From assembly GCA_964016885.1 (NCBI GenBank), contig OZ024742.1, positions 297,290,001 through 297,354,000 of the forward strand: a DNA stretch of 64,000 bases. The letters run 5' to 3'. The stretch is from Eledone cirrhosa. Its lineage: Eukaryota. Positions within the stretch are counted from its first letter, which is position 1; every line of letters starts with the position of its first letter. The position numbers and the translations under genes are program-made. Below, in pieces: positions 18,776 to 63,900 of the stretch. The notes below the pieces were generated by a model. That model made no database searches and was not told the origin of the DNA. It saw only the letters and a list, made by a program, of their open reading frames with translations.

Positions 18776-21242
18776 AGGTGGTGTTTAGAACATAACTTAG
18801 CAAAGGTTCTTACATAAAGTTATGATGAAAGGTTTTCAGATAAATATAAATACTTTAAAACAAACAGTATTATATAATAGAGCAAGAGTGGTTTCAGGCA
18901 ATTTGGCATCAAAAGTAGTAAGGTCATTTTCCATAAAACAGGTTAGATTATGAGGTCCATGCAAGGTTTCATGCTCATCATGGGGTCCTTTTTTAGGCAA
19001 TGTTTTATAACAAGATGCCCTCCTTCCTCCTTCACAATGCTATGCCTACTAGTCACGTCTTACAACACACAGAGATACAGTGTAACTATTATAAATCAGA
19101 TATACACAACATATTTTTATCTACTTTTAAAGTGAATAAAATCTTATTTGCTGCTTTAATATAAGCTTCTCTTTTGGTGGATGTAGAATTTGCTAAATAT
19201 CTTACATGATGTAAGCTGTGGAAGCCTTTTCTGCTTTAACTTCCTTTTTTTTTTCTTCTTAACCTGCAGAAACAAACTAAATGGAAATAAAATAGAAATT
19301 TAATCAGCCTAGAAATTTGCATTGAACAAGAAAGCAATTCAGTAGGTTCTCTGTAGCAAGAAGAATAGAAGAAAATAATTATAAAATCAATAATACATGC
19401 AACTACCCACATTACAACTAAAATTGCAAAAACAGAAATTACAGTCACATTTTTATCTGGCTATATACCAATCTACCAAATGTATTTGATGCTGATTTGG
19501 TGATTTACTATACAACACAAGAAGAAAAGATATTTTAAACATCATCTATTTTTGTTTCATTCAGTTATAAAAACTCCATGACAAAATGGACTGAGTTTGT
19601 AGGTTCATATGACACACATTTCATCATATCATTAAATCAATGTATTTTCACACGCAGAGATTTTCTTGATAAGAAATGAGACAAAGGAAAAAGATTTCGC
19701 TACTGATGTCTGCACAATTTGTATTATCAGAAAATTATATAGTTTCTCTTACAGGTGTTCAGTGGTTACCGATAGTACTAATTGAAACTATACTTTTCTA
19801 AGTTCATGTTTAAAGCTTTTCCTTTTTTCCAATGCTTACCATATTTAGTTTGCTAACTTCAAGAGTGGATGCTGCATGACTGCTGCTGCTGAGATGATGA
19901 TGATGATGGGAATGAAAATATTGCTGTGATGCTGGTTTACTAGGTTATATGCCATCTAGTAATAAAGGACTCTATATGCCTGATTCATCAAAATACTGTA
20001 TTTCATGAATTTGATGACAGTAAATCTTTCTAATATTTTAATAGCAAAAGGGTATATTTATCTAAAAATGTCCATCCTAATTTTATACAAGAACCTTTGT
20101 TGAGTTATGCTCCAAAATAAAATGCAGCATAACCAAATTCCTGAGAAAAAATACTTAATCATCACTACCCACAAAATTCCTGATTATTTTCAAAATAATT
20201 TGAAAATCATAAGCACTGTTTTTCGTTAGAAATATGATAATGAAAGGGTTTAAACAACAATAGTTATATAGCAGATGTTGTAATCAGTGGCTTCATCTAA
20301 ATATTTCCAGGAATATTTCAAGTTGGTAGTATTTTGAATAAATTTAAGGTGAATTTGATGTAGGCATTATTGTAGTTTTTAAATATAATCCTTGCTGTGA
20401 AAACATTAAGAAATGTAAGTAGATTTCCCTTTTCACAGAAATTCATATAATTTAAAAATGTAGGTGTTTACATTTAAGTTATCTTAGATTTTCTGATATA
20501 CACTATGTTATGTTACAGTTATCATTGTTTGGTTATCTAATCTTTGGTGATAAATTAGCATTATATGCAACAAAACATTCCCAGCTAGAGGGTTTCTTCA
20601 ATATTGTGGAAAATTGTATGGAAAAGACTGAAATGTTGGTTTGGTTATAGGAAAGCCAATCATTAACAATGAAGCAAACTAAAGTACGATGATTCAGAAG
20701 TTCATGGAGAGAAAGGGAAATAAAAAAAACACAGGTATTTGTTAATTTTACATTTTATAGATTCGTAGTTTTTTGTGATTTTCTTTTAGTAGCAGGGATG
20801 AGAGTAAAAAGGTAAACGAAAAAAGAGAAATTTATATGCTGACAGAATAAAAAGAAATGATATTCATTTAAATAGAAAAAATATCATCAGTGCTATCAGC
20901 AAATTTGCAGCACCAACATAGCACATGGTTTTGTAGTGTTGGGTTGGAATATAAAATAGATAGACACTATAGTTCAAAATACTTCAAATCTACTAAAGAC
21001 ATCAGAAACTACACCATAAATCTGACATACAATGCCTACAGATTCAAAGAATGTAAGAAGCAATGGGATATTTAGTGTCAGAAAACAGTTTAAGATGACA
21101 GATATTATCTATTACTATTCATATATAACAAATATATATAACATATAGTAATAAATTTGAAGACTAAAAACCAAAGAGGTCTCGATAAGATAAATATATA
21201 TCAAATATATAAGAACCGTAGAGCAAATATTTATTAAAATAA

Positions 21243-21318
21243 CAGATTAAAGTTTAAGCAAAGAATAGCTGCTTTCACCCTTAACGGTATCTTCTGAAAC
21301 TAAAAAAAAATCAATCTG
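21243..21318 (-). ncRNA. Degenerate type-I hammerhead ribozyme (core CAGAAGA, U4 changed to A)
   Basis: cagauuga..aguuu-CAGAAGA-uaccguuaagggu-GAAA-gca..ugc-UU^aaacu-uuaaucug. Stem I aguuu/aaacu with an 8-bp extension. Confidence 0.55.
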
Positions 21319-21698
21319 TGAACGCAGAAGTAAATATTTCGAAAAACGTTGCAACCGAAGGAAGCAGGAAGACGATACTTTCGTTCATGGAGGTATGTTT
21401 TCCTGCTAGGTACGGGTATGTTCTTTGTAGAAATATTCATATGTTGTTTCTGCAAGATGAATATAAGTCAATAGAGTCTTCAACCGAGGGAGCCAAATAG
21501 TAATAATAATAAATTTGAAGACTAAAATCCAAAGAGGGCTCGAGAAGGATAAATATATATCAAATATATAAGAACCGTAGAGCAAATATTTATATTCTTC
21601 CTGTCTTCCTTCGGTTGCAAAGTTTTTCAAAATATTTACTTCTGCGTTCACAGATTGATTTTTTTAGTTTCAGAAGATCCCGTTAAGGGTTATGGTAA

Positions 21699-22991
21699 GG
21701 GAGAAAAGCAATCTCGCACAATTTGGCACGAAACGCCTATAAAAATTGATCAGGCCTAACTGACGTAGTGAGGTCGGTGGAGGCAAATCCTCTATGACCT
21801 TAACTCGCTCAGGTCGGGGTCGAATACCGTCAGCATCGATGACGTGATCCAAGAAAGTCAGTGACTCAGCACCAAAAACACATTTGGGTGCATTAATCTG
21901 TACATTATACGCCTTCAATCGGCGGAAAAGAAGATTCAAATGGTGCGTATGTTGTTCTTGAGAAGAACTAGCAATGAGCAGGTCGTCAATATATGTATAG
22001 ACGAAATCGAGGCCACGAGTAACCTCATCCATAAACCGCTGAAACGTACTAGCGGCATTCCTTAATCCGAACGGCATGGTCAAAAACTCAAATGACCCAA
22101 ATGGCGTAACTATAGCCATTTTGGGAATGTTTATGGACAGGAATTTGATGGTACGCACGAATTAAATCTAGTTTGGAGAATACCTTGCATCCCTGCAACG
22201 AAGACGCAAAGTCTTGCAGATGAGGGTTAGGATAAAGGTCTGGTTCCGTTATTGAATTTAAGCGTCGATAATCTCCAGTCGCTTTCGGTACAATGTGTAA
22301 TGGGGACGCCCACGGGCTCGTGGACGGACGAATAATCCCCAACTGCAGCATATGATCAAACTCTGATCGTGCTGCTTTGAGTTTGTCCGGAGGCAAGCGA
22401 CGAGGACGAGAAAAAACGGGAGCACCAATTGTAGTTATGAAGTGCTCCGTGGTATGAGTTGGCTCATCAACTCGAAAATTTCCCTGAGTCAGTTGCGGGA
22501 ACGAGTTCAACAACGCATGGTAAGTATCGCCGGTGTTAGCAAGAAAAAAAGGTCGGGCTAACCGTTAGAACTCCTGCTGCCTTGCCAACAACAAAAAAAC
22601 CAGTGATGTCATCAATTAGGCGTTTACGACGGAGGTCCACCGTCAATGAAAAATGGTGGAGAAAATCCGCGCCTCGAATCGGATACGGCAAGGCAGCGAC
22701 AGTAAAAATCCATTTAAACTCACGCCGCAGATTACAGAACTGCAAAGGTAGCGAGATTTGTCCGAAGGTTCGAATCGGCGAACAATTTACTGCCTGCAAC
22801 TCAATAGGTGACTCAGGGGGAGTCTCCTTCATACAACACACAGGCCATATTGAAAAAGCTGCACCTGTGTCAACCAGAAAGGCTTTACCTGATAGCAGGT
22901 CCTCAATAAAAAAGTGGCGGTTGGATGATGTTTCGCAGAGCGCACTATCCGCCGTTAGTGACTCTGGTCGTCGTTTCCCTTGTAAGCACAA
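21699..22991 (-). pseudogene. pol: Gypsy pol remnant: aspartic protease plus reverse transcriptase
   Basis: FLVDTGA and IRGADFL (protease); SPWASPLHIVPK, DYRRLN, FSKLDLIRAYHQIP, MPFGLRNAASTFQRFMD, YIDDLLIA and GLINFYRRF (RT). Spread over three ORFs. Confidence 0.92.
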
Positions 22992-23714
22992 GGAGGCCTA
23001 CAACGGGCGGCTTTGTCACCATATTTGTCATGGTAATAACAATATGATGGATTTGAAGATTTGGAACGGCTACGGCGGCGAGGAGTTGAATAAGATTGTG
23101 AGCGGCTCCTCTGCCCTCCAAAAGACCTGAGTTCCTGGCACAACTCTGCCATTTGACGAGTTATGGATTCCATAGTTTTGACCAACTTATCACTCGCTGA
23201 TGAGCGTGATTGGGGAAGAGAAGAGGAAGCAACGTACTTTTGCTTCGAAGTGTCTCTCTTCGTCACTTCTATTTTGTCGGCAGAGACAGCAATGTGGTCG
23301 AGTATGTTTAACTCTAGCATATGGGCTAGCATCGCCTGTACCTCTTGAGAGAAGAACAATTGCTTCAGGAAAGGGCTATCCTGATCTTGGAATCACTCAA
23401 TTCCCGCAAATGCCGGAGCAAAGCGGTAGGGGTTCTGTCACCTAGTCGTTCGTCCTCGATCAATGACCGAAAACGACTCTCTACCGATTTACAGTTCCTT
23501 CTCAAGATCTCGCCTTTTAAAGAATCATACGTTAAGTCAGAGGGGGGTCTGTAATAAGGTATTGGACCGAATCTGCTAAATTAGGGGGAAGTCCGCTAAT
23601 CAAGACAGCGAGGCGCTGGTCAGACTCGGTCTTACAGACCGTAAAATACGCCTGTAGCTGGGCGAACCACAGCTTAGGGTTTCCGGTAAAGGCGGGCAAA
23701 TGTGGCGTATTCAT
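22955..23714 (-). pseudogene. gag: Gypsy gag remnant
   Basis: MNTPHLPAFTGNPKLWFAQLQAYF N-terminus, LGDRTP motif, RS-rich linker and CYYHDKYGDKAARCRPPC knuckle. Frameshifted. Confidence 0.85.
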
Positions 23715-24373
23715 TGTGAAACGACTAAAAAAAAATAGAAACAGCAATTAATGTTCCCTCGTACACGGAAAAGTAAACACCCAAAATGGAAAAAAAAAAA
23801 AAAAAAAAAAAAAAAATCAAAGGTCAAAAAGAAACAGACATTCAAAACATTAGGAAATAGCAAAAATACATAAAGTACATATATATATATATTTTTTTTA
23901 AATGTTTTCCTTCAACGTCTGTCCCCTTGTGTTGCTTCAACGGGCAAGCCAAATCATATAACCCGAGAAAAAGAGAAAAAAAAAATGTTTGTTTTAGAAT
24001 ATATCCACGTTGGATATCAACAATAGGTAGCCTGTGGCTAAAAATCCCTTAGAAAAAAAGTAAGGCATGTGAATCGCCAGCGGGGCAGTAATGTTCACAA
24101 AAACAGTTTTTCTCTTGATCAAATATGGGACACACACAATTCAAAATGTCCCTGTCCTGGCGGGAAAATTGCAAAACGGAGGAGAAAAGCAACGCCATAT
24201 TGGAAACATTTTTGGCTGGTTTTTTGTATACTTTTTCAATACCGTATAAACACATTATTATTTCTCTGTCTTTTTTTGTGTGTATTTTTGTAAGTTGCGA
24301 AAAGGTTGGCAACGTGGTAATAACAGTGAAATATTTAAGTTCAAATGAATAAAAGGCTGCGTAAAATTCTTTA

Positions 24374-24386
24374 GTCGGGGTCACCA
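24374..24386 (-). promoter_or_regulatory. Primer-binding site complementary to the tRNA-Trp 3' end
   Basis: TGGTGACCCCGAC one base after the LTR end; matches the eukaryotic tRNA-Trp end ...GUCGGGGUCACCA. Confidence 0.85.
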
Positions 24387-24387
24387 G

Positions 24388-24959
24388 TATGGTAATGAAG
24401 AATCCTTGTTGGATAGTTTATCAATATAGACGTGAGGGAAAGTCCCTCGTCTATTTACCATTTTCGTAAGTGAGAGGATAGGTACTCCGTAGAATTATAA
24501 CAAGTGAGTGGGTGTGTGTGTAGACAAGATAATAACCACAACGAGAATTCTATTCAACAATGTAAATAAGGATGATATTTATTTTGTCTATTATGTGTTT
24601 GTTATATTACAAATGAAACAACATACCAATATAGACGTGATCAGTTGAAATGAAGGCAACGTATTACAATTGTCGTGGGTCACCAATGTAACGCACACGT
24701 CTGGGTCACCAATGTGACGGGACCAGTAAAGTGAAATCAGTTATGAGCCAGTGCTCGTCCAACACTATCCTTGTGGCTTCGGCATAGGAGATCAGTGTAT
24801 TGACATCTGTGTGATCTCATGGTCCAAAGGCTGTTTGCTGTTCCCGTGGCCTATCTGAGAAAGTAATACTGCTGCTTACTTAAATAGTGTTCTCAACCAG
24901 GGCGAGACAACTAGGCCTGGTCCATTATCCGACAGGGAGGCGTAAGGCGTCTTACTACA
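24388..24959 (-). repeat. 5' LTR of the Gypsy element (572 bp, apparently composite)
   Basis: Bounded by the TSD and PBS. Termini TGTAGTAA...TTACCATA, and the same TTACCATA end is found at 21691-21698. Confidence 0.75.
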
Positions 24960-25657
24960 GGGTGAAAGCAGCGATTCTTTGCTTTAACTTTTAATCTGTT
25001 ATTTTAATAAATATATATAACATATATAAGTAGTATTTGGTTCTTTCACCAGACTTTAACTCTTAGCATACTGTAATGAACGGAAAAAATGAAACGAAAT
25101 TTCATTTCTCACTCTTAGTACGGCTCTTACTTAAATATAAGTATGTATACGTACATACATATATGTATACAGGCGTACAGTAGTATGCATGTATATATAT
25201 ATACATACATGCACACATATATATATGTACGTATATATATATATACATACTACTGTACGTCTGTATACATATATGTATGTACGTATACATACTTATACAT
25301 ACTGTAATGATTTAGCAGAAAATATCTAAAAGCAGGTTTGTTAATTCAAATGTTTATAATATTGTTTTTAGTGGACAGATACTTGTGAAAATTTACAGTG
25401 CTAGAGAGTAAAGAATGTCTTGTTAATGAGATTTCATGCAGTACAGGAGATTAGGAGTTAATAAAGCTATGTTTGTAAATTATATTCTTTTATTCTTTTG
25501 GTTTCAGCCAGTAGATTGCGATCATGCTGGAACAATGCTGGAACAATGCTTTGAAGTGATTTTTTGTCTGTCTGATGTTTATTTTATTGATCTCTTTTTG
25601 TCAAATCCCTAATATCTGAGACCTATGTAGAGACACATACATGGGCATACACACATG

Positions 25658-32447: not shown

Positions 32448-32620
32448 CCACCTTTGCAAGCAGGGTAAAGCGGACGTAAAATGAAATGAAAAATGATGAT
32501 GATATATATATATATGTATATATATATATTTTTATCCTTATCGAACCCTCTTTTGATTTTATTATTATTATTACTATATATATGTATATATATATTTATA
32601 TATATATAAATATATATGCA
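32300..32620. repeat. (TA)n tract containing a roughly 60-bp RTE 3' tail (32444-32503)
   Basis: ...GCGGACGTAAAATG...GATGATGAT resembles the 3' end of the intact RTE. Confidence 0.8.
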
Positions 32621-41199: not shown

Positions 41200-41433
41200 T
41201 ATCTGTTTTGTGCCTCCTCTTTTTCTTGGTCTTAAATTTCAGACATGCATTAATATCCAACCCCATTCTGTTTCACACTATATCTGTGCAATTACATATA
41301 TTTACATACATATATATATATATATATGGATGTATATATAATGTATTTTGCAATACACTTTATGCTTAATTAAAAGCATTTTGAAGACCGTATGCTATTG
41401 TTTTAGAGTAGTGACAAATTCACTTACTTTAAT

Positions 41434-41522
41434 CTCAGCAAACAGGGGAGATAAGCGGACAAGGCCTTGTTTCGCATTTATTGATGCTTATCAAGGCTAA
41501 CTACTCCCTCCTGTCTGCTGAG
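41434..41522 (-). ncRNA. Type-I hammerhead ribozyme (U3-A8 variant), inverted copy
   Basis: Reverse complement of 41732-41820. Confidence 0.75.
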
Positions 41523-41731
41523 ATCACTGATGTATATTCTTATAGAATTCTAGTAAATAATCAGGAACTGATTATACAGAACGGTTGTTGGTCAGGCAAA
41601 AATTAAAAATATATATATTGCTATTTCAGAGCTCCAATTCTAATTTTTTATTTCTGCCTGACCAACAACCGCTCTGTATAATCAGTTCCTGATTATTTAC
41701 TAGAATTCTATAAGAATATAACATCAGTGAT

Positions 41732-41820
41732 CTCAGCAGACAGGAGGGAGTAGTTAGCCTTGATAAGCATCAATAAATGCGAAACAAGGCCTTGTCCGCT
41801 TATCTCCCCTGTTTGCTGAG
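41732..41820 (+). ncRNA. Type-I hammerhead ribozyme, U3-A8 core variant
   Basis: UUGAUAA (41760-66), stem II gcau/augc, GAAAC (41781-85), palindromic stem III ACAAGGCCUUGU, GUC^ at 41796. Extended stem I cucagcagacagg/ccuguuugcugag. C-C mismatch at 1.1/2.1. Confidence 0.78.
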
Positions 41821-41961
41821 ATTAAAGTAAGTGAATTTGTCACTAATCTAAAACAATAGCATACGGTCTTCAAAATGCTTTTAATTAAGCATAAAGTGTA
41901 TTGCAAAATACATTATATATACATCCATATATATATTGCTATTTCAGAGCTCCAATTCTAA

Positions 41962-42040
<79 letters not shown>

Positions 42041-42045
<5 letters not shown>

Positions 42046-45000
42046 TCATCACCGTTTTACGTCCGTTCTTCCACGCTAGCATGGGTTAGACGGGTTGTCC
42101 TGTTGTGGGCAGTGTCTGGTCGGCTGACCATGCCTTGCTCATACAGGAACTGATCTGGCTTGATTTCTACAGCTGGATGCCCTTCCTAACACCAACCTCA
42201 TTTACAGTGAGTGCTGGGTGCTTTTTCGTGGCGCCTACACGTCCACTTTACAGTGTGGGCTGGGTGCTTTTTTGCCGTGGCACCTCCACGACCACCTTGC
42301 GGTGGGGGGGGGGGGCATATTGTTTATATGCTTCAGCATGTACCCATGGGAGGTCGGGTACCCTGTATTACTGCGTGACGCCAGAAGTCACGGTCGTGTG
42401 TCATTGACTTTGAGAGGTGTAGTTGGGTAAGGTCGGCTTTTATCACCTCATCCCAAGTCATCTTGGGTCTCCCCACTCCGCGGTTTCCATCAACTTCTAG
42501 TGCTCTGCACCTTTTTATGCAGCTGTCATCCTTCATACGCATCACATGTCCATACCAGCGTAACCGCCTCTCCTGCACGCAGCATTTGATTCCTCTTATG
42601 CTCAGTCTCTCTCTCAATTCATTTATGCTTTGTCGTTCACGTATATTACTGTTACACATCCATCGGAGCATGCAGGCTTCGTTTCTCTCTAATCTACGTA
42701 GGTCTTCCACCTTCAGCGCCCAGGTCTCACTACCATGCAACATCGCTGTTCGGATACACGCATCATACAGTCTGCCTTTCATTCTGAGGGAGAAGCCTTT
42801 TGCAGCTAGCAGTGGTAGTAGTTCCCTAAACTTCTTCCATCCCGTTCTTACCCTAGTTATTGTACTTTCTGAGCACCCACCTCCGTTGCTAATTCGGTCA
42901 CCTAGGTAGCAGAAGCTGTCTACTGTTTCTACAGGGCCCTCCCAGAGATTGGTGGTACTTGTTTCCTGTGGCTGTTTGCTTGCTGTTTCAGCACAGCTGC
43001 TGCATGTGAATCCTACATTCTTAATTAAGCTTCCTGAGATCCCGCTACATCTCTTGTGTACCCATTGTTTGCATTTGGGGCAAAGAATGGAGTTCCTACC
43101 TACACCTTTCCTACATACTGAGCAAGGCCATTTCCCTGAGGGGATCTGGGTTCTGTTTTCTCGTCTACTTATAAGGACCTTAGTCTTTGTCATGTTGACT
43201 TTGAGGCCCTTTCTCTCTAGTCCCTGCTTCCAGGTTTGGAATTTATTCTCTAGTTCTACCATAGATTCAGCTATGAGTGCGAGGTCATCAGCATACAGGA
43301 GTTCCCATGGGCATCCGGTCTTAAACTCCTCCGTTATTGCCTGCAGGACTATGATGAACAGGAGAGGGCTAAGAACAGAGCCCTGGTGGACCCCAACCTG
43401 TACGCTAAATTCCTCGCTATACTCATTGCCAATCCTAACTTTGCTGACTGCTCCCCTATACATGGCTTGTACCGCTTTCACAAGCCATTCATCTACTCCT
43501 AGTTTTCTAAGAGCCCACCAGATTACTGCACGTGGAACTCTGTCAAAGGCTTTCTCAAGGTCGACAAATGCCAAGTAGAGTGGCTTACTTTTAGCTAGGT
43601 ACTTTTCCTGTAATTGCCTCACAAGGAAGAGCGCATCAGTGGTGCCTTTCCCTGGTACAAACCCAAATTGCATCTCGTCTATATTCACCCGGTCCCTAAT
43701 CAGCTGTGCTATAACTCTTTCTGTTACTTTCATGACCTGGTCCATCAACTTTATACCTCTATAGTTTCCTCTATCTAGTGCATCGCCTTTACCTTTGTAG
43801 CAGTTGACAATGATGCTACTGCACCAATCTTTTGGTATGGCCCCCTCTAGTATTACCTGGTTAACGATACGTGTGGTTATAGTGTGACCTACAGACCCAG
43901 ATGCCTTCAGCATCTCGGCAGCTATACCCGATGGACCGGTTGCCTTCCCTATCTTCATATCTCTGATTGCCTTACTTACTACGCTGCCGCTGACTTGTAC
44001 TGCTGGTCCCTCTATAGGGTCTACGTGGGGTAGGGTCTCTTCTTCCCATGCATTCTCCTCATTTAGTAATCTATCATAATGACTCTTCCATGCATCTTTC
44101 TTCTCAGCACTTGTGAGGGCAAGCTCACCTTTATCATTCCGGATACACTTCTCTCCAATGACATCACAACTATCTCTGACACACTGCCTCGCAATCTTGA
44201 ATACCTCCTGTTTCTGGTCCTCACGTTGTAAAACATGCTTGAATTTTCTATCCTCTGCTTCCCTCCTAGCTAAGTATACTTGTCGCCTAGCTTCCCTCTT
44301 GGTCTCTATGTAATGTACCCTGCTCCCCCCGTTCTTCCATTCTTTCCATGCCTGTCTCTTGGCCTTGACTGCTTCATCTACCTTATTGTTCCACCACCAA
44401 GTCACTCTCCTCCTGCTTGAGGTCTTACTCCAGCCACAAACCTCATCCGTCGCCTCTAGTAAGTTATTTTTTAGGAACTCCCAGTTCTCTTCTACGTTAA
44501 ATGTCTCTATCTGTTCTTCTTTACTGTCGTAGGCGTTGAGTAAAATATCTTTAAATCTGTTACTGGTTGAGGGGACTTTCAGCTTCCAGATCTTTCTTCT
44601 CCAGGTTGGCCTCTGTTTCAGGGCTCGTCTAGTTCTGACCGTGAGGTCGCTGACAACTAAGCTATGTTGGGATGTACATTCCTCACTAGGGAAGGCTTTT
44701 GTGTTTACGACCGTCCATCTGTCACGTCCTCTGATGAGGATAAAATCTAACTGACTAGAGTGCTCCCCTGATCTATAGGTGATCAGGTGGTTGTCGGGTT
44801 TTTTAAAGTTTGTGTTACATATCGACATGTCATTGGCGTCGCAGAATTCTAGAAGTCTGAATCCTTCCTCATTCCTTGTGCCAACTCCATGGCCTCCATG
44901 TACTCTATTGAAGCCGTCGCAGTGTTTACCTACGTGTCCGTTAAAATCTCCTGCAATGATTAGGAAGTCCTTGTCGTCTGTTAGAGCAGTAGTGTGTATT

Positions 45001-45460
45001 AGGGACTCGTAAAACCTATCCTTAAGTTCGTCTGGCAGCCCCGATTGGGGTGCGTAAGCTGATATTATTGTGGTAATTGTCTTATTCAGGACTAGTCTGA
45101 GTTTAATGATTCTTGCATTTACCCTGTACACTGAGATTACTTTATCTACCCACTTGTCAGCTAATAGTATACCTACACCACCCATCCCATCGTCATTTCC
45201 CACCCAGAAAAATTTGTAGCACTGGCTTTTTCCTACAAGGACTCTAGCAGACCCTCCTCTCCATCTAGTCTCTTGCACACAGCATACATCAACTTCCTTT
45301 CGCTCTAGCATTTCTACGATTTCTCCTGCTCTTCCTTTCATTGAGCCTACATTGATGGTACCAACTCGGAGTTTTGGGCATTTGTCGACACTCGTAGGGG
45401 AGGGTCTCTGGGTTGGCGCTTCACGTGGGTGCTTGGTAGCTCGCAGATTCATATTTCATA
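42041..45460 (-). mobile_element. Near full-length RTE-clade LINE inserted in (TA)n
   Basis: Single ORF plus a roughly 290-bp 3' UTR ending ...CCCATGCTAGCGTGGAAGAACGGACGTAAAACGGTGATGATGA. TA runs on both sides. Confidence 0.95.
42333..45452 (-). CDS. RTE LINE polyprotein: AP-like endonuclease, reverse transcriptase and a PHD-like zinc finger (1039 aa, uninterrupted)
   Basis: APE motifs GTINV, CVQETRW, SAYAPQ, GDFNGHVG, DFILI, SQH. RT motifs NYRGIKL, QFGF, FVDLEKAFDRV, GVHQGSVLSPLLF, YADDLAL, FCYLG. Cys cluster CSVC...CPKC...HKRC...CSSC. Confidence 0.96.
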   Translation of the reverse strand: MNLRATKHPREAPTQRPSPTSVDKCPKLRVGTINVGSMKGRAGEIVEMLERKEVDVCCVQETRWRGGSARVLVGKSQCYKFFWVGNDDGMGGVGILLADKWVDKVISVYRVNARIIKLRLVLNKTITTIISAYAPQSGLPDELKDRFYESLIHTTALTDDKDFLIIAGDFNGHVGKHCDGFNRVHGGHGVGTRNEEGFRLLEFCDANDMSICNTNFKKPDNHLITYRSGEHSSQLDFILIRGRDRWTVVNTKAFPSEECTSQHSLVVSDLTVRTRRALKQRPTWRRKIWKLKVPSTSNRFKDILLNAYDSKEEQIETFNVEENWEFLKNNLLEATDEVCGWSKTSSRRRVTWWWNNKVDEAVKAKRQAWKEWKNGGSRVHYIETKREARRQVYLARREAEDRKFKHVLQREDQKQEVFKIARQCVRDSCDVIGEKCIRNDKGELALTSAEKKDAWKSHYDRLLNEENAWEEETLPHVDPIEGPAVQVSGSVVSKAIRDMKIGKATGPSGIAAEMLKASGSVGHTITTRIVNQVILEGAIPKDWCSSIIVNCYKGKGDALDRGNYRGIKLMDQVMKVTERVIAQLIRDRVNIDEMQFGFVPGKGTTDALFLVRQLQEKYLAKSKPLYLAFVDLEKAFDRVPRAVIWWALRKLGVDEWLVKAVQAMYRGAVSKVRIGNEYSEEFSVQVGVHQGSVLSPLLFIIVLQAITEEFKTGCPWELLYADDLALIAESMVELENKFQTWKQGLERKGLKVNMTKTKVLISRRENRTQIPSGKWPCSVCRKGVGRNSILCPKCKQWVHKRCSGISGSLIKNVGFTCSSCAETASKQPQETSTTNLWEGPVETVDSFCYLGDRISNGGGCSESTITRVRTGWKKFRELLPLLAAKGFSLRMKGRLYDACIRTAMLHGSETWALKVEDLRRLERNEACMLRWMCNSNIRERQSINELRERLSIRGIKCCVQERRLRWYGHVMRMKDDSCIKRCRALEVDGNRGVGRPKMTWDEVIKADLTQLHLSKSMTHDRDFWRHAVIQGTRPPMGTC

Positions 45461-45522
45461 TATATATATATGAGAGACGTAAAATAAGAAAATTATAAAA
45501 TTAACTTACTTACTAAAATATC

Positions 45523-45604
45523 ACTTCCAACTAATTAGTTTCTGGAATGGAATAAATATATTTTCCGAAGAAGATACAGAGAAGCATTCCGTCGTCAGGG
45601 AGGT
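45523..45604 (-). ncRNA. Type-I hammerhead ribozyme
   Basis: accucc-CUGACGA-cggaaug...cauucca-GAAAC-uaauua-GUU^ggaagu. Predicted cut between 45529 and 45528. Confidence 0.82.
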
Positions 45605-46285
45605 CTATTCTCATCTAAGTATCCAGGCAAAGCGTGGACACTGGAAACTTATTAAAAAATAATTCAGTGGATAGGAAATAGCAAAGCGTGGACTGAATTC
45701 CTAGCCATTGAGAAAATCACTGCCTCTGCGTCGGTGGCAAATTCAAAAAGAATCAATCACGTGACATCGAGGTCAATCAGTGGAAAGTGGTTTGCTAATA
45801 AGACAGCGGCCTGCTACCATAGCAGCAGTCATGGCCAATATTGCTCGACAAATAATTTGGAGATAATTATGAAGATTTAATATCTAGTAACATATATATA
45901 CATACAGATGCATATCAATGCTAGCAAATATATAGGTTTTGTCTTAGTAACTTTGTGGTTCAATGCATGGGGTTGCAGAACAATAATATGAGAGACGTAA
46001 AATAAGAAAATTATAAAATTAACTTACTTACTAAAATATCACTTCCATTGGCCATGACTGCTGCTATGGTAGCAGGCAGGCTGCTGTCTTATAAGCAAAC
46101 CACTTTCCACTGATTGACCTCGATGTCACGTGATTGATTCTTTTTGAATTTGCCACCGACGCAGAGGCAGTGATTTTCTCAATGGCTAGGAATTCAGTCC
46201 ACGCTTTGCTATTTCCTATCCACTGAATTATTTTTTAATAAGTTTCCAGTGTCCACGCTTTGACTGGATACTTAGATGAGAATAG

Positions 46286-46367
46286 ACCTCCCTGACGACG
46301 GAATGCTTCTCCGTATCTTCTTCGGAAAATATATTTATTCCATTCCAGAAACTAATTAGTTGGAAGT
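46286..46367 (+). ncRNA. Type-I hammerhead ribozyme (inverted copy)
   Basis: CUGACGA 46292-98, GAAAC 46348-52, palindromic stem III AACUAAUUAGUU, GUU^ at 46361, stem I accucc/ggaagu. Confidence 0.82.
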
Positions 46368-46561
46368 GATATTTTAGTAAGTAAGTTAATTTTATAATTT
46401 TCTTATTTTACGTCTCTCATATTATTGTTCTGCAACCCCATGCATTGAACCACAAAGTTACTAAGACAAAACCTATATATTTGCTAGCATTGATATGCAT
46501 CTGTATGTATATATATGTTACTAAATATTAATTCTTTATATATATATATATATATATATAT

Positions 46562-46915: not shown

Positions 46916-47125
46916 TATATATATATATATTAGTAAGAGTCGGGGCTCGATGGCTGCAATCTTGCTGTTTCAATAGCTAGTTCCAGGCTAAGCCCCAACT
47001 CTTTCTAATATAGTCACACTCTACTATCCCAAATATTGAGTATTTTGTTGTATAATGGGTTAAATAGTTTAAAACTGGTTTAATCCTGTTTTAAACTATT
47101 TAGACCATTATATATATATATATAT

Positions 47126-56212: not shown

Positions 56213-56405
56213 TTAAATATGGAAGTGTGGTAAGGAACCAGATGGACCATAACGCACCAGAGTACTCAATACTTAGGGTAGTTGAGTGGGTAATATGAAA
56301 ATGTGTAACCCCGACGGCAGAGCTCAAGCCGTTTTGACAGCTATTTCTGGACGTCCAGAAATAGCAGTCGAAACGGCTTGAGCTCTGCCGTCGGGGTTAC
56401 ACATT

Positions 56406-56406
<1 letters not shown>
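56210..56406. mobile_element. Truncated fold-back element: a 108-bp spacerless palindrome containing the 3' half of a hammerhead
   Basis: Arms 56299-56352 / 56353-56406 with 2 mismatches. GAAAC-ggc..gcc-GUC^gggg at 56370-56396. TA runs on both sides. Confidence 0.72.
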
Positions 56407-56440
<34 letters not shown>

Positions 56441-57354: not shown

Positions 57355-58617
57355 TAACATAGCCTCACTATCTGTAACACAAACTTCAAAAACCATAAAA
57401 ACCACTTGATCACCTATAGATCAGGGGAACACGCCAGCCAGATAGATTATATCCTTACTAGAAGATGGGACAAAATGTCTGTTGTAAACATTAAATCCCT
57501 CCCTCGTGAAGAATGCACCTCTCAACATAGCCTAGTAGTTAGTGACCTCATAGTCAGGAATAGACGTACTCGACGACAGAGGAGGCCTACCTTGAGGAGA
57601 AGAATATGGAAGTTGAAGGACCACATAGCCAGTGACAAATTTGAAAGCCTATTACTTGATGCCTTTGACAATAAGGAAGAGAAATTAGAGACGTGCAATA
57701 TAGAGGAATAATGGCAATTCTTGAAAGTGAACCAGCTGAAAGCAACGGATGAAATCTGTGGCTGGAGCAGACCTATTGGCAGGAGGAGAGTAACTTGGTG
57801 GTGGAACAGTAAGGTGGAAGAGACAATCAAGGCCAAAAAGCAGGCTTGGAAAGAATGGCAGGATGGGGGAAAGTAGAGAGCACTATCAAGTGGCCAGGAG
57901 AGAAGCTAGGAGACAAGTGTACCTTGCAAAAAGGGTAGCAGAGGATAGAAAGTTCAAGCATGTTCTACAACGTGAGGACCAAAAACGTGAGGTGTTCAGG
58001 ATTGCTAGACAATGTGTCAAGGAAAACCGGGATATTGTCGGGGAGAAGTGTGTCCGTAATGATAACGGTGTACTTGGGCTCACTGATACTGATAAGAAGA
58101 TAGCCTGGAAGTGTCACTACGAGAGACTATTAAATGAGGAGAATAAATGTGAAAAGATAGTCTGCCCCAAATCGATCCAATAGAAGGACCAGCAGTGCAA
58201 GTTAAAGGTAGTATAATAAGTAAGGCAATCAAAGATATGAAGACAGGCAAGGCAGCTGGGCCTTCGGAGATAGTTGCTGAGATGTTGAAGGCATCTGGTA
58301 TGGTGGGACACACTATGGTCACCCGTATAGTTAACTAAGTAATACAGAATGGGGTCATACCGAAAGACTGGCGTAGCAGCATCATCATTAACTGCTACAA
58401 GGGTAAAAGGGGATGCTCTAGATAGGGGAAACTATAGAGGCATTAAGTTAGTTGACCAGGTCATGAAGGTCACAGAAAGAGTTATAGCGCAACTAATCAG
58501 AGAGCGAATTGATCTAGATGAAATGCAGTTTGGGTTTGTGTCAGGTAAAAGTACCACAGACGCTCTTTTCCTTGTACGACAACTACAAGAGAAGTACCTA
58601 GCTAAAAGTAAACCTCT
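57355..58617 (+). pseudogene. RTE LINE internal fragment closely related to the intact copy
   Basis: ITYRSGEHASQIDYIL...ARREARRQVYLA...GDALDRGNYRGIKL...QLQEKYLAKSKPL, with stops and frameshifts. Ends abruptly at 58617. Confidence 0.93.
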
Positions 58618-59645
58618 TTCTAACTTTGATATTGGTTATAACACACACACATTTTATTTGATTATCTTATTTTATTTTATTCTTTTACCATCTTATTCCT
58701 CCTACCACTTTATCCAACATCTGTCTAACTTTGAGATTGATTATAACACACACACATTTTATTTTATTTGAATCTTCATTTTTATTTTTCATTTATTTTT
58801 TATTTTCTTCATTTTATTGCCTTCTATTTCTTCATATGCATGGCACCCCCCCCCCCCACCCACCACCACCACCACCACGAGAAATGGTGGCAGGATGGAT
58901 GAAAAACCACGCAGATACTTCTAAATGTCAGCAGCAGCAAGATCTAGGCTGACTGCAGCACCAACACCACTACCAAAATAAGGGTAGAGGTCAGATGTAC
59001 TTAACAATAGCAAAATCAAACACTACAGGTAGCCTCACCCCAGAAAGAATTTCTATAGACTTTTGACTGAGGAATGCTCTCACAACTGACCAATGGGAGG
59101 AGTGACCTTACAAATCTTTCTAACTTTGAGACTGGGTATAACACACACACATTTTATTTGATTATCTTATTTTATTTTATTCTTTTACCATCTTATTCCT
59201 TCTACCACTTTATCATTTTTTTGAGCTGACTCCAACACCAACACCACTACCAACATAAGAGTAGCGGTCAGATGTACTTAACAATAACAAGAACAACCAC
59301 TACAGATTGCCTCGCCTCAGAACGAATTTCTATAGACTTTTGACTGAGGAATATCCTCACAACTGACCAATGGGAGGAGAAGATGTCCTTTGACGCTGAA
59401 ATTCGTTTGTTTAAATTCATATGATTCCAGTTCTTCAGTGAAATAACAAGCCAACCAGGAACTGGGCATATCAGAGTATTGACAAAGTTAAACACCTCAA
59501 CAACATGTGTACTCGTCTCTACCACACTAATTCGGACTGCCTGAAGAAGTCACAGCCAAAGATGGCTGCCACCGAAATATATATAGCAGTAATAAACGAA
59601 GCCAAATTTTAAATATTTGACTTATTTATTTTAGTTTATTTTATA
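58616..59645 (+). mobile_element. Non-coding element with internal tandem duplications and a 3' hammerhead (pLTR- or retrozyme-like)
   Basis: TCTAACTTTGA.A.TG..TATAACACACACACATTTTATTT at about 58616, 58724 and 59116. A roughly 140-bp duplication at about 58962-59101 / 59239-59378. HHR and AATAAA near the end, then TA. Confidence 0.65.
59536..59590 (+). ncRNA. Minimal type-I hammerhead ribozyme
   Basis: acugc-CUGAAGA-aguca-cagcc aaagau ggcug-ccacc-GAAA-uauau-AUA^gcagu, immediately followed by AATAAA. Base of stem II is decayed. Confidence 0.7.
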
Positions 59646-59753: not shown

Positions 59754-60530
<777 letters not shown>

Positions 60531-60537
60531 TATTTTG

Positions 60538-61068
60538 AGAATAAACTCTCAGTCGTTTACAATAATTAAGCTCCAGGAAGGGGCTCTTCCGAGCAGTTAA
60601 ATACATTTAAAATATATGATAAACACGAAATGTGTTTATATTGCAACAGACAAAGTTAGCTATTAATGAAATAAACTAATTAAAGTGAATACAATTTGTC
60701 TGTCTCGATACAAGTCAATAAAGACAAGCTTATAATTTTACTGGATTCCTGTTGATAAGCACAGAAGATTTGGATATTTCACTCTTTTATTTCTATTCCA
60801 TTTCGATTCTCTTTATTTTTCAATTCACATTCCACCGTTGCGAAACTTATTTGGGTTTCGAGGTTCAAATTCGTCTACAGAACAGGTTTGAATTTTGAAA
60901 TTTAAATATGTCCAGGAATCATGGCCGTTGCCAATATAAGCTTGTCTTTATTGACTTGTATCGAGACAGACAAATTGTATTCACTTTAATTAGTTTATTT
61001 CATTAATAGCTAACTTTGTCTGTTGCAATATAAACACATTTCGTGTTTATCATATATTTTAAATGTAT
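60538..61068 (+). mobile_element. HHR-bearing fold-back non-coding retroelement in (TA)n
   Basis: 134-bp inverted repeats at 60601-60734 / 60935-61068 enclosing a hammerhead. Confidence 0.85.
60744..60920 (+). ncRNA. Type-I hammerhead ribozyme, U3-A8 variant with long stem III and a large loop II
   Basis: gauuccug (60744-51), UUGAUAA, gca..77 nt..ugc, GAAAC (60842-46), a 24-bp G-U-rich stem, GUC^ (60910-12), caggaauc. Perfect 8-bp stem I. Confidence 0.85.
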
Positions 61069-61639: not shown

Positions 61640-62947
61640 TTTACATCACTACAAAAGAGGACATTATCTTTCATGCTAGAAAAACTCTACTCTTTACTAA
61701 TGAAGCTATTTGGGTTTAAAATTCAAGCCCTGAAAACTCTTTTGACGTTGCGATTTGCGATGGGTTCATATGATGTGTGCTGATGTGTGTGACTTAGTAG
61801 GATTATTCCTTCTCCAAACTCTTAAAGAGAAATTTCCTTCCCATAATATCGGTTTATACCGAGACATTGGCAGTTTATCATACCACCAACGGCCATAACC
61901 TTGATAAATTCCGTAAGCATTTAATCAATACTTTTGCTAACCATAACCTTAAAATTACTTTTGATACGAACCTTACTAATGCGAATTTCTTGACATTAAT
62001 CTTGATCTACTTAGTGCCTCTTTTAAACCTTATCATAAACCTAACGAGAATCTAAGATATATACACAAAGAGTCTTGCCATCCCCCTATAATTTATAAAA
62101 ATCTTACTCATAATATTAGCCGTAGGATTTCTACCTTATCTTCGTATCTAGACATTTTTAACGAAGCCGTCCCTTATTATAATAAGGCCCTCAATAACAG
62201 CAGCTTTACAGAACATATTAAATATTTACCAACTCCTCCCCACAAAACTAGTCATAATAACAGGAAAAGGAAAATTATTTAGTTTACATCCCGTTCTCTC
62301 TAACTGTCAAAACTCATGTAGGAAGGAAATTCCTTGACCTCCTAGACAAACATTTCCCCCCTAATCATAGATATTATAAGATTTTTAATAGAAATGTAGT
62401 CAAAATCAGTTACTCTTGCTGTCCATCAATGAAGTCTAAAATCACCAACTCTAATCGTACGAGAGTAAATCCAGGATGCAGTTGCAGGAAGCCGGAAGAA
62501 TACCCATTACAGGGCAAATGTAATACTAAAGCCATTGTGTATGAGGCCAAATTGACACCGTTGGCTAACAACCAGCCAGCCAAGAGTGAACGATATGTTG
62601 GCATGACTCAGGACAGGTTCAAAACCAGGTTTTATGCACATGTCGCTTCTTTTAAACACTCTGATAAAAGAACAACAACGGTTCTCGCAAATAAAGTGTG
62701 GGAATTCAAAGACAAAAACATCCCGTACACTATCGATTGGTCTATTTTGGACCATTCTAGAGAATACCAAAGGGGCACAAAGTATTGCTCTTTGTGCACC
62801 ACAGAAAAATTTAGAATTTTCCAAAATTTGAAAGCCAATTCCACTTGCCTTAACTCCAAGACCGAGATCTTCAGATGTTGTCCTCAGCTGAAATCACATC
62901 TACTTTGTAACTGGATTGACATTCCTAAGATGACTCAACCACCTTGA
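61640..62947 (+). pseudogene. Penelope-like element (Naiad/Chlamys-type) RT C-terminus plus GIY-YIG endonuclease; 5'-truncated and frameshifted
   Basis: ARKTLLF, FDVA..MGSYD, DLVGLFLL, NIGLYRD, PFSLTVKTHVGRKFLDLLDKHFP, KISYSC, CSCRK..PLQGKC, IVYEA...RYVGMT..FKTRF..H, CSLCTTEK, LNSKTE. Confidence 0.9.
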
Positions 62948-63306: not shown

Positions 63307-63900
63307 GAAGTTCTATTTAAATTGTTGGGATACAAGCAAATATTTTTATAACTGATATAAAGCACTCAACAAATTATTGGAGTAAAAATACGATATATTA
63401 ACAAATGGAAACTATATTTATAAAACCATATTTATTTCATTATACATATTTCAAGGACACCAAGTTAAATTGTGGTGTGCTTTCATCAGATAAAATATAA
63501 TATAGATCAGTTTTATAAATAAATATTGACATACCCTTCAAGAATGCGACCATTTCTGTTGGAAGCTCCCGGATAGTGGGGTTATTAAATTTATTTAGTC
63601 TATTTGTTATAAAGGACTTCTTACGGTTTATGCTAAACAAACTTATATAATAACAGTCACAACTATATTACAGGTGGATTTATTAGATATAAAATTTATA
63701 AATTTTATAAAATTATAACTTACTATTAAATAATATAAGGTATGTATAATCTTAAATTTCCTTTATTATCTTAATATTTATAACACTTACTTTCCTTCAC
63801 GGTGTTTTGCTATTACATAGAAATGAATTTTCTCCGATTTTTTCTCCGATTTCTCCGAAAAATCTATAAGTTTAGAAAAGTTACTATATCTTAAACATAA
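63303..63900 (-). mobile_element. (TA)n-flanked element with a hammerhead (pLTR-like)
   Basis: HHR at 63434-63496, AATAAA and an ACTC/GAGTGCT motif. Its 3' part resembles about 61340-61475. Confidence 0.55.
63434..63496 (-). ncRNA. Minimal type-I hammerhead ribozyme with a canonical core
   Basis: auuuuau-CUGAUGA-aagcacacc..gguguccuu-GAAA-uaugu-AUA^augaaau. Confidence 0.82.

Follow-up and report, generated by a model that had tools for sequence, protein, structure and literature searches.

A fold-back Penelope-like unit of Eledone cirrhosa, interrupted by a Gypsy element, was probably integrated in one step

How does a retroelement come to lie in its target as a direct copy joined head to head to an inverted, shortened copy of itself? 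We address this question at a locus in a stretch of 64,000 nucleotides from Eledone cirrhosa (GCA_964016885.1, contig OZ024742.1, positions 297,290,001 to 297,354,000 of the forward strand), hereafter the window, in which a non-coding, very high copy repeat resembling Penelope-like elements (PLEs) forms such a fold-back unit and carries a decayed Ty3/Gypsy element in its inverted arm. The architecture itself is ordinary for PLEs. How their tandem and inverted ends form is named as unresolved in PMC8557442, and the breakpoints of this locus hint at how the flipped copies form. The locus is useful in that the AT tract around it is interrupted, which makes its target-site duplication (TSD) readable, and in that the family variants of its two arms can be told apart. 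We conclude that the direct-plus-inverted unit was probably integrated in one step, with priming at both target nicks, because its TSD exceeds chance, its outer ends are family termini beside (AT)n and its arms carry different variants.

The window is AT-rich, animal-type DNA dense in microsatellites and retroelements. Evidence from outside it comes from four of seven public runs: X2 and X3, which derive from a single sample that is possibly the source of the window; X5, a restriction-site-associated DNA run from another sample; and X1, a run with a small share (0.05) that was taken solely as a related organism with related repeats. The alignment rows examined were 24 of 2061 for loose ends, 12 of 47 for indels, 40 of 553 for differences and 15 of 425 for joints, and the statements below on these classes refer to those rows. 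Along the plus strand the unit runs in the order a (21145-21234), b (21227-21372), c, a' (21503-21593) and reversed b, with the following features:

21130..21147, plus strand: left TSD copy, whose final three bases (21145-47) also fit the element's end
21145..21226, minus strand: tail, forming the direct arm's 3' end and delimited by the two termini that the family prefers
21227..21372, minus strand: segment b of the direct arm, resembling the pseudo-long terminal repeat (pLTR) of PLEs and recurring as the inverted arm
21251..21301, minus strand: intact type I hammerhead-like motif of the direct arm (stem I of 5 bp, core CAGAAGA plus one extra U, stem II of 3 bp, GAAA, stem III of 4 bp)
21373..21502, minus strand: segment c, the remainder of the 358-bp non-coding unit
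21497..21593, minus strand: a', second tail copy, forming the direct arm's 5' end and stopping at the equivalent of 21234, with 4 substitutions in 90 and 1 gap
21591..21595, no strand: head-to-head junction, three bases common to both arms followed by two matching neither
21596..21690, plus strand: first part of the inverted arm, carrying the 5' half of the second hammerhead
24964..25014, plus strand: second part of the inverted arm (GAAA, stem III and stem I), ending at the equivalent of 21227
25009..25026, plus strand: right TSD copy, whose initial six bases (25009-14) also continue the inverted arm

Once 21691-24963 is excised, the inverted arm measures 146 bp and aligns in reverse with 21227-21372 over 144 bases, with 5 substitutions and 3 gaps, the arms being 3.5% apart. 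The 3' ends of both arms face outward, the 358-bp period is present as 1.2 units in tandem with a tail of about 80 bp, and a 223-bp spacer separates the arms, with no palindrome centred on the junction. The longest stop-free frame overlapping 21148-21600 is 85 codons, and the whole direct arm, when folded, was not unusually stable (z -1.28).

The 18-mer that a reading of this DNA from sequence only had placed on both sides of the unit is identical at 21130-47 and 25009-26 and has no third site on either strand of the 64 kb. The longest exact match to a 51-nt left boundary window was 12 bases among 2547 other windows, and again 12 among the 70 windows of at least 85% AT, so the TSD of the fold-back unit exceeds chance. 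Up to 9 of its 18 bases also fit the ends of the element, and only 9-18 bases are therefore surely target-derived; the 18 bp claimed in the sequence-only reading is an upper bound, and the length is bounded rather than fixed. Single-copy contigs of X2 and X3 extend from the flank across the left 18-mer as far as 21187 and 21178 within the element, unbroken at 21147, and nothing points to an empty allele in that sample. The right junction had no supporting contig among those listed, and the single-copy contigs back the left junction alone.

The 18-mer is 94% AT and is identical at 16 of 18 positions to a motif within the element (21192, 21551). Extended by four more bases on the right it matches the tail motif at 20 of 22, the best non-self match in the window, which means that the target resembles the element's own tail. 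This likeness would fit the PLE endonuclease, which cuts AT-rich DNA, its own pLTR included, and is a predicted dimer (PMC11167929); such an endonuclease may pick targets resembling the element's own tail. Copying of the right 18-mer from the internal motif was rejected, as the match to the left flank is 18/18 versus 16/18 to the motif.

Both outer ends of the unit recur across the family. Loose ends before 21227 were found in 2038 reads of X5 and in 120 and 121 contigs of X2 and X3, and loose ends before 21497, the equivalent of the left end, in 140 and 122 contigs of X2 and X3; the consensus of the loose ends was (AT)n in X2, X3 and X5 (agreement 0.61-0.68). These pile-ups indicate that both outer ends of the focal unit are family termini beside (AT)n. 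Between 21232 and 21188 the depth falls from 2.2 million to 0.14 million in X2 (about 16-fold) and from 5908 to 903 in X5 (about 6-fold), from which it follows that most copies of the family end at 21227 and are tail-less. Depth over segment b in X2 is about five orders above the single-copy flank (2.2 million at 21232 versus 17), summed depth not being equal to copy number and reads being divided between the two similar arms. Pattern scans found no family copies in metagenome contigs or viral contigs.

Two indels by which the repeats of the locus differ are likewise family variants. The extra base of the inverted arm (equivalent of 21364) is present in 682 of the 1082 X5 reads there, and 532 of 903 have the one by which a' is longer at 21188. 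Both indel states thus occur at other loci, which suggests that the arms derive from different template units and so argues against snap-back copying and local duplication, with the caveats that reads are split between two similar places and that gene conversion is possible.

About 800 X5 reads match just a 50-bp piece of the tail, 21537-21587, and then continue into a GC-rich hairpin and CTAG, which we take to resemble the 3' end of a Helitron. Another family may carry a captured tail piece.

These data suggest the following course of events. A PLE reverse transcriptase (RT)/GIY-YIG endonuclease provided in trans would have copied a non-autonomous PLE RNA of tandem 358-nt units into an AT tract with interruptions. 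Both strands would be nicked 9-18 bases apart, and both 3' ends would prime cDNA on hammerhead-sense RNA. From the left nick, cDNA would start at the outer of the preferred sites, at the tail end, and cover one unit and a tail; from the right nick it would start in a different unit, at the inner of the preferred sites, and cover 146 nt. The two cDNAs would then be joined head to head, and fill-in would produce the TSD. The sequence-only reading had already placed the origin of the inverted layout at integration, by priming at staggered nicks; the TSD, the termini and the variants support this, and it is not new, the layout having been published with TSDs and an empty allele (PMC3846280).

Placed on a tandem template, the two arms overlap by 2-8 nt: the end point of the direct arm is the equivalent of 21234, and the inverted arm has its start at 21227-21233. 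A stop of the direct arm 2-8 nt past the start of the inverted arm would be like L1 twin priming on one RNA, and twin priming on one tandem RNA is the form of one-step integration that we prefer, with a confidence approaching an even chance. It would give the inverted arm, the tail and the TSD in one step without an antisense template. Generalized a little more guardedly, twin priming on a single sense RNA of tandem units might give rise to the 5'-inverted pLTRs of PLEs: the two nicks would prime in neighbouring units, at the two start sites fixed in the family, and the first cDNA would end at the second primer. If so, the stops of direct arms are expected to cluster where inverted arms start, across the thousands of copies of one genome. 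A literature search, judged from listings and with most subscription papers outside it, found no application of twin priming to Penelope.

Three further fold-backs in the window bear on this proposal. That at 41318-41969 lies in (AT)n and has a 318-bp unit with a 43-bp tail, arms 1.4% apart, an adjacency overlap of 0-10 nt and, in each arm, a hammerhead variant with U3-A8 (41760 on the plus strand, 41494 on the minus strand). The fold-back at 45468-46545 lies between (AT)n tracts and has a 518-bp unit with arms 0.8% apart and a hammerhead-like core without a good stem I, and that at about 60525-61068 has identical 134-bp arms, a one-sided extension of about 76 bp, a flanking 15-bp interrupted AT repeat and no hammerhead match. 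Adjacency is thus seen in two of the four fold-backs of the window (binomial P 0.017-0.052 at an assumed chance of 0.056-0.10 each), and hammerhead-like cores point 3'-outward in both arms in three of the four, the focal unit being counted after rejoining. The repeats of 15-18 bp around the three other fold-backs, and a 21-bp repeat at 32.5 kb, lie in (AT)n and were not counted as TSD evidence.

The 21-bp repeat, an AT-rich direct repeat, flanks a short tail-only relative of the focal family at 32517-32612 on the minus strand, which is 75% identical and starts at about the same terminus.

Several observations weigh against one-step integration or against its twin-priming form. The fold-backs at 45468-46545 and about 60525-61068 are not adjacent, both adjacent ones sit in AT-rich spots that may draw junctions anyway, and the adjacency test was devised after the focal unit had been seen. 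The direct arm stops 21 nt short of the predicted hammerhead cut, which could have caused the stop without a second primer. The overlaps of 3 and 6 nt at the locus stand against the finding of PMC11167929 that there was no homology between the cut DNA and the RT start site. As to the allele with a single 18-mer that had been proposed as a check, X2 and X3 gave a filled left junction and the empty site was not recovered, X1 and X5 barely or not covering the single-copy flank and none of the 15 of 425 joints skipping the whole unit. Nor was an autonomous partner identified, in that the focal family has no DNA match to the PLE-like open reading frame (ORF) region within the window, 62261-62947.

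The rival that survives best, which we consider rather unlikely, is a sub-case of the same one-step integration in which two separate RNAs were bound by a dimeric RT/endonuclease and each nick was primed at a preferred start site on its own RNA, the adjacency of the arms being due to chance or to run-off near a hammerhead-cut 5' end. The predicted PLE dimer and its extension of two strands (PMC11167929) favour it, as do the two non-adjacent fold-backs and the 21 nt between the direct-arm stop and the predicted cut, and differing arm variants fit it equally well. Against it, adjacency within 10 nt occurs in two of four units, and in the unit at 41318-41969 the cut is about 130 nt from the stop.

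Snap-back self-priming at integration, in which the first cDNA (or an antisense RNA, as in PMC3846280) folds back and copies itself into an inverted arm, is the published model for head-to-head PLE inserts and could draw on the three bases shared at the junction and on the six-base match to the right TSD. We regard it as improbable here, since the arms differ by a non-homopolymer indel of which both states exist elsewhere in the family, the junction has a 223-bp spacer in place of a palindrome, and the inverted arm ends exactly at the family's main terminus. Two successive insertions, the second being a tail-less copy that, in opposite orientation, entered the first copy at its AT-rich end and inside its TSD, would be in keeping with the preference of the family for AT-rich targets, with the target's 20/22 resemblance to its own tail motif and with the different variants of the arms; this is very doubtful in that no TSD surrounds the inverted arm by itself, the bases next to its inner end not being repeated beyond its outer end, the inverted arm abuts the 5' end of the first insert exactly, and three of four units have the same polarity. 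A later local rearrangement or an assembly artefact, with the 18-mers being chance or pre-existing low-complexity repeats, is the least credible explanation, for while the 18-mer is 94% AT, half of it overlaps the element's ends and the empty site was not found, the null maximum is 12 bases, the arms are 3.5% apart with family variants, a Gypsy element is nested in one of them, and the left junction is in single-copy contigs of X2 and X3.

One-step integration also agrees with what has been described for PLEs that encode an endonuclease. In Adineta vaga, Pen2a, Pen2 and Pen3a have direct pLTRs plus an adjacent inverted pLTR within TSDs of 9, 10 and 8 bp, the 8-bp sequence is single on the allelic scaffold, which represents the empty allele, and self-priming on antisense RNA is proposed (PMC3846280). 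The layout is called typical of PLEs in PMC8557442, with TSDs often unreadable in microsatellites and the mechanism undefined. In vitro, a PLE protein cuts and extends both strands, and two RT start sites bound the tail (PMC11167929). The excerpts of PMC9977147 contain no description of inverted de novo PLE inserts. The direct-plus-inverted layout and the main inference of a single event are thus already published (PMC3846280); the new detail is that the outer ends are family-wide termini by (AT)n, that the indel separating the arms has both states at other loci of the family, and that the arms are adjacent on the tandem template.

The focal unit shares with these PLEs (PMC3846280, PMC8557442) a direct partial tandem and an adjacent inverted, 5'-truncated copy placed head to head, a tail at one end only and bounded by two termini, a single TSD around the whole unit, and AT-rich or (TA)n targets. 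It differs in that it is 358 bp long and contains no ORF, and so neither an RT nor a GIY-YIG frame of its own, in its tail of about 80 bp as opposed to 30-40 bp (PMC8557442), in its TSD of up to 18 bp as opposed to 8-10 bp (PMC3846280), and in that its 5' end lacks a direct copy of segment b, which was flipped and not added, with no palindrome at the junction.

Non-LTR retrozymes, defined and tied to PLEs in PMC7229834 and bioRxiv 10.64898/2026.07.22.740005, are low-GC non-coding units of 150-450 bp with a type I hammerhead and TSDs of more than 4 bp, and are proposed to be non-autonomous PLE derivatives; the focal unit resembles them in being 358 bp, non-coding and low in GC with a variant hammerhead, and in a TSD that exceeds 4 bp. 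It differs in having 1.2 tandem units and one hammerhead per strand where 10.64898/2026.07.22.740005 asks for two consecutive ones, and in its inverted arm, the word 'inverted' having no matches in PMC7229834. To judge from its sequence, the host element would work like a non-autonomous PLE or a non-LTR retrozyme, which is a statement of likeness and not of formal membership.

L1 twin priming as described in PMC2912911 resembles the focal unit in an inverted 5' part that is template-adjacent to the non-inverted part, in microhomology at the outer ends and the junction, and in one surrounding TSD. The focal unit is unlike it in having no poly(A), in a tandem template that makes the inversion appear as an inverted repeat, and in the position of both primers at fixed family sites.

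The original paper on L1 twin priming reportedly dates from 2001.

The sequence-only reading had seen a hammerhead core broken by the Gypsy insertion. Removal of 21691-24963 does restore a type I hammerhead fold, and the uninterrupted form is present in X5, where 188 reads with 35 start places connect 21685 with 24959; these reads come from other copies of the family, as the single-copy flank has no depth in X5. The motif is qualified by its departures from the consensus. It was the sole full match of a first scan across the 64 kb, has three stems around the core, an open stem I and a UH triplet as in type I, and has a predicted cleavage after 21256, at the triplet CUU. In both copies the core is CAGAAGA and not CUGANGA, U4 being changed to A, and the closing pair of stem II is A-U in the left copy and mismatched in the right where G10.1-C11.1 is conserved. 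The active fold of 21251-21301 has -4.2 kcal/mol versus -8.2 for the minimum-energy fold, and Rfam gave no hammerhead match at the gathering score or at E up to 10, where seven unrelated weak matches were obtained. A relaxed core scan of the window gave 23 matches, of which the 7 in chosen regions were inspected.

Among the 40 of 553 differences listed from the runs there is no row for position 4, which hints weakly at A4 as the state of the family. A hammerhead variant with U4A may be in use in a very abundant family. No precedent for U4A was found in the literature search described above. Like the hammerheads of PLEs (PMC4209133) the motif is of type I, with an extra base between position 9 and stem II and a short stem I; it is unlike them in A4, in a stem II of 3 bp that closes with A-U and not G-C, and in a stem III of a full 4 bp. 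Pairs of hammerheads on opposite strands, 100-700 bp apart, were already noted in PMC4209133.

The interrupting element lies in the inverted arm and has the following features:

21691..24959, minus strand: decayed Ty3/Gypsy element of 3269 bp with a 5' long terminal repeat (LTR), a primer-binding site (PBS) and gag-, protease- and RT-like pieces in separate frames
21687..21690, plus strand: left 4-bp TSD GGGT of the Gypsy element, which is the 3' strand of stem II
21691..21698, minus strand: final eight LTR bases, identical to 24388-95 and fused to RT sequence, probably a remnant of the 3' LTR after an internal deletion
21699..22564, minus strand: RT pieces (RVT_1 E 5.5e-19; best Ty3 RT E 3.5e-34, next group 2.3e-14)
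24374..24386, minus strand: PBS
24388..24959, minus strand: 5' LTR of 572 bp that begins with TGT and ends with TA, not CA, with two further PBS-like motifs inside
24960..24963, plus strand: right 4-bp TSD GGGT of the Gypsy element

That GGGT is both the Gypsy TSD and the 3' strand of stem II, as previously claimed, holds at 21687-90 and 24960-63, and the 4-bp TSD is supported by the same eight bases ending the 5' LTR and the left junction; this 8-mer has only two sites in the element (21691-98, 24388-95) and 11 in the window. The match of another Gypsy copy, in an X2 record, ends at 24960. The point of insertion is the border of stem II and GAAA, not the unpaired core, and an insertion in stem II needs no special cause. 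What the nested element contributes is the order of events, with the host first, and a point against an artefact; the latter use of it, made in the sequence-only reading, is sound for the fold-back, as arms 3.5% apart with an insertion nested in one of them are not what an assembler would produce.

The Gypsy element resembles Ty3/Gypsy in an RT closest to that of Ty3, in the order LTR, PBS, gag, protease, RT, in its 4-bp TSD and in the TG start; it is unlike Ty3/Gypsy in the TA end of its LTR, in the missing RNase H, integrase and 3' LTR and in the extra PBS-like motifs of its LTR. Of its four pieces compared with Pfam two had no match, among them the protease-like piece directly before the RT; we call these pieces gag- and protease-like by motifs that we take to be typical (D-T-G-A for the protease). 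We also presume that the PBS at 24374..24386 corresponds to tRNA-Trp. No RNase H, integrase or second LTR beyond 8 bp was found in the element, the region after the RT being absent. It would have inserted at full length, with a 4-bp TSD, into the inverted arm at stem II, after the fold-back was in place, and a later, microhomology-mediated internal deletion would then have removed RNase H, integrase and nearly all of the 3' LTR.

The two extra PBS-like motifs of the 5' LTR, at 24677-24711, are 26 bp apart and each is preceded by an ACA end. They are possibly captured fragments of LTR end and PBS.

Several other features of the window lie apart from the focal unit. The PLE-like region at 62261-62947 is a 228-codon frame without a Pfam or PDB match that presumably resembles the C-terminal GIY-YIG endonuclease of a PLE, by motif, and a hammerhead-like core lies at 63489 on the minus strand. 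The fold-back at 45468-46545 is directly upstream of a 1040-codon APE-RT (RTE-like) long interspersed nuclear element (LINE) frame at 42333-45455. Near-perfect palindromes without a spacer occur at 56293-56412 (120 bp, 93%) and 47051-47112 (62 bp, 87%) and may be genuine snap-back products. About 55 bp to the right of the TSD starts a different high-copy repeat, 25079-25310, inside which is an inverted (TA/TG) array. A second, inverted RTE-like LINE fragment at about 57370-58617 is adjoined at 58611-59379 by partial tandem repeats of 100 bp (96%) and 155 bp (89%).

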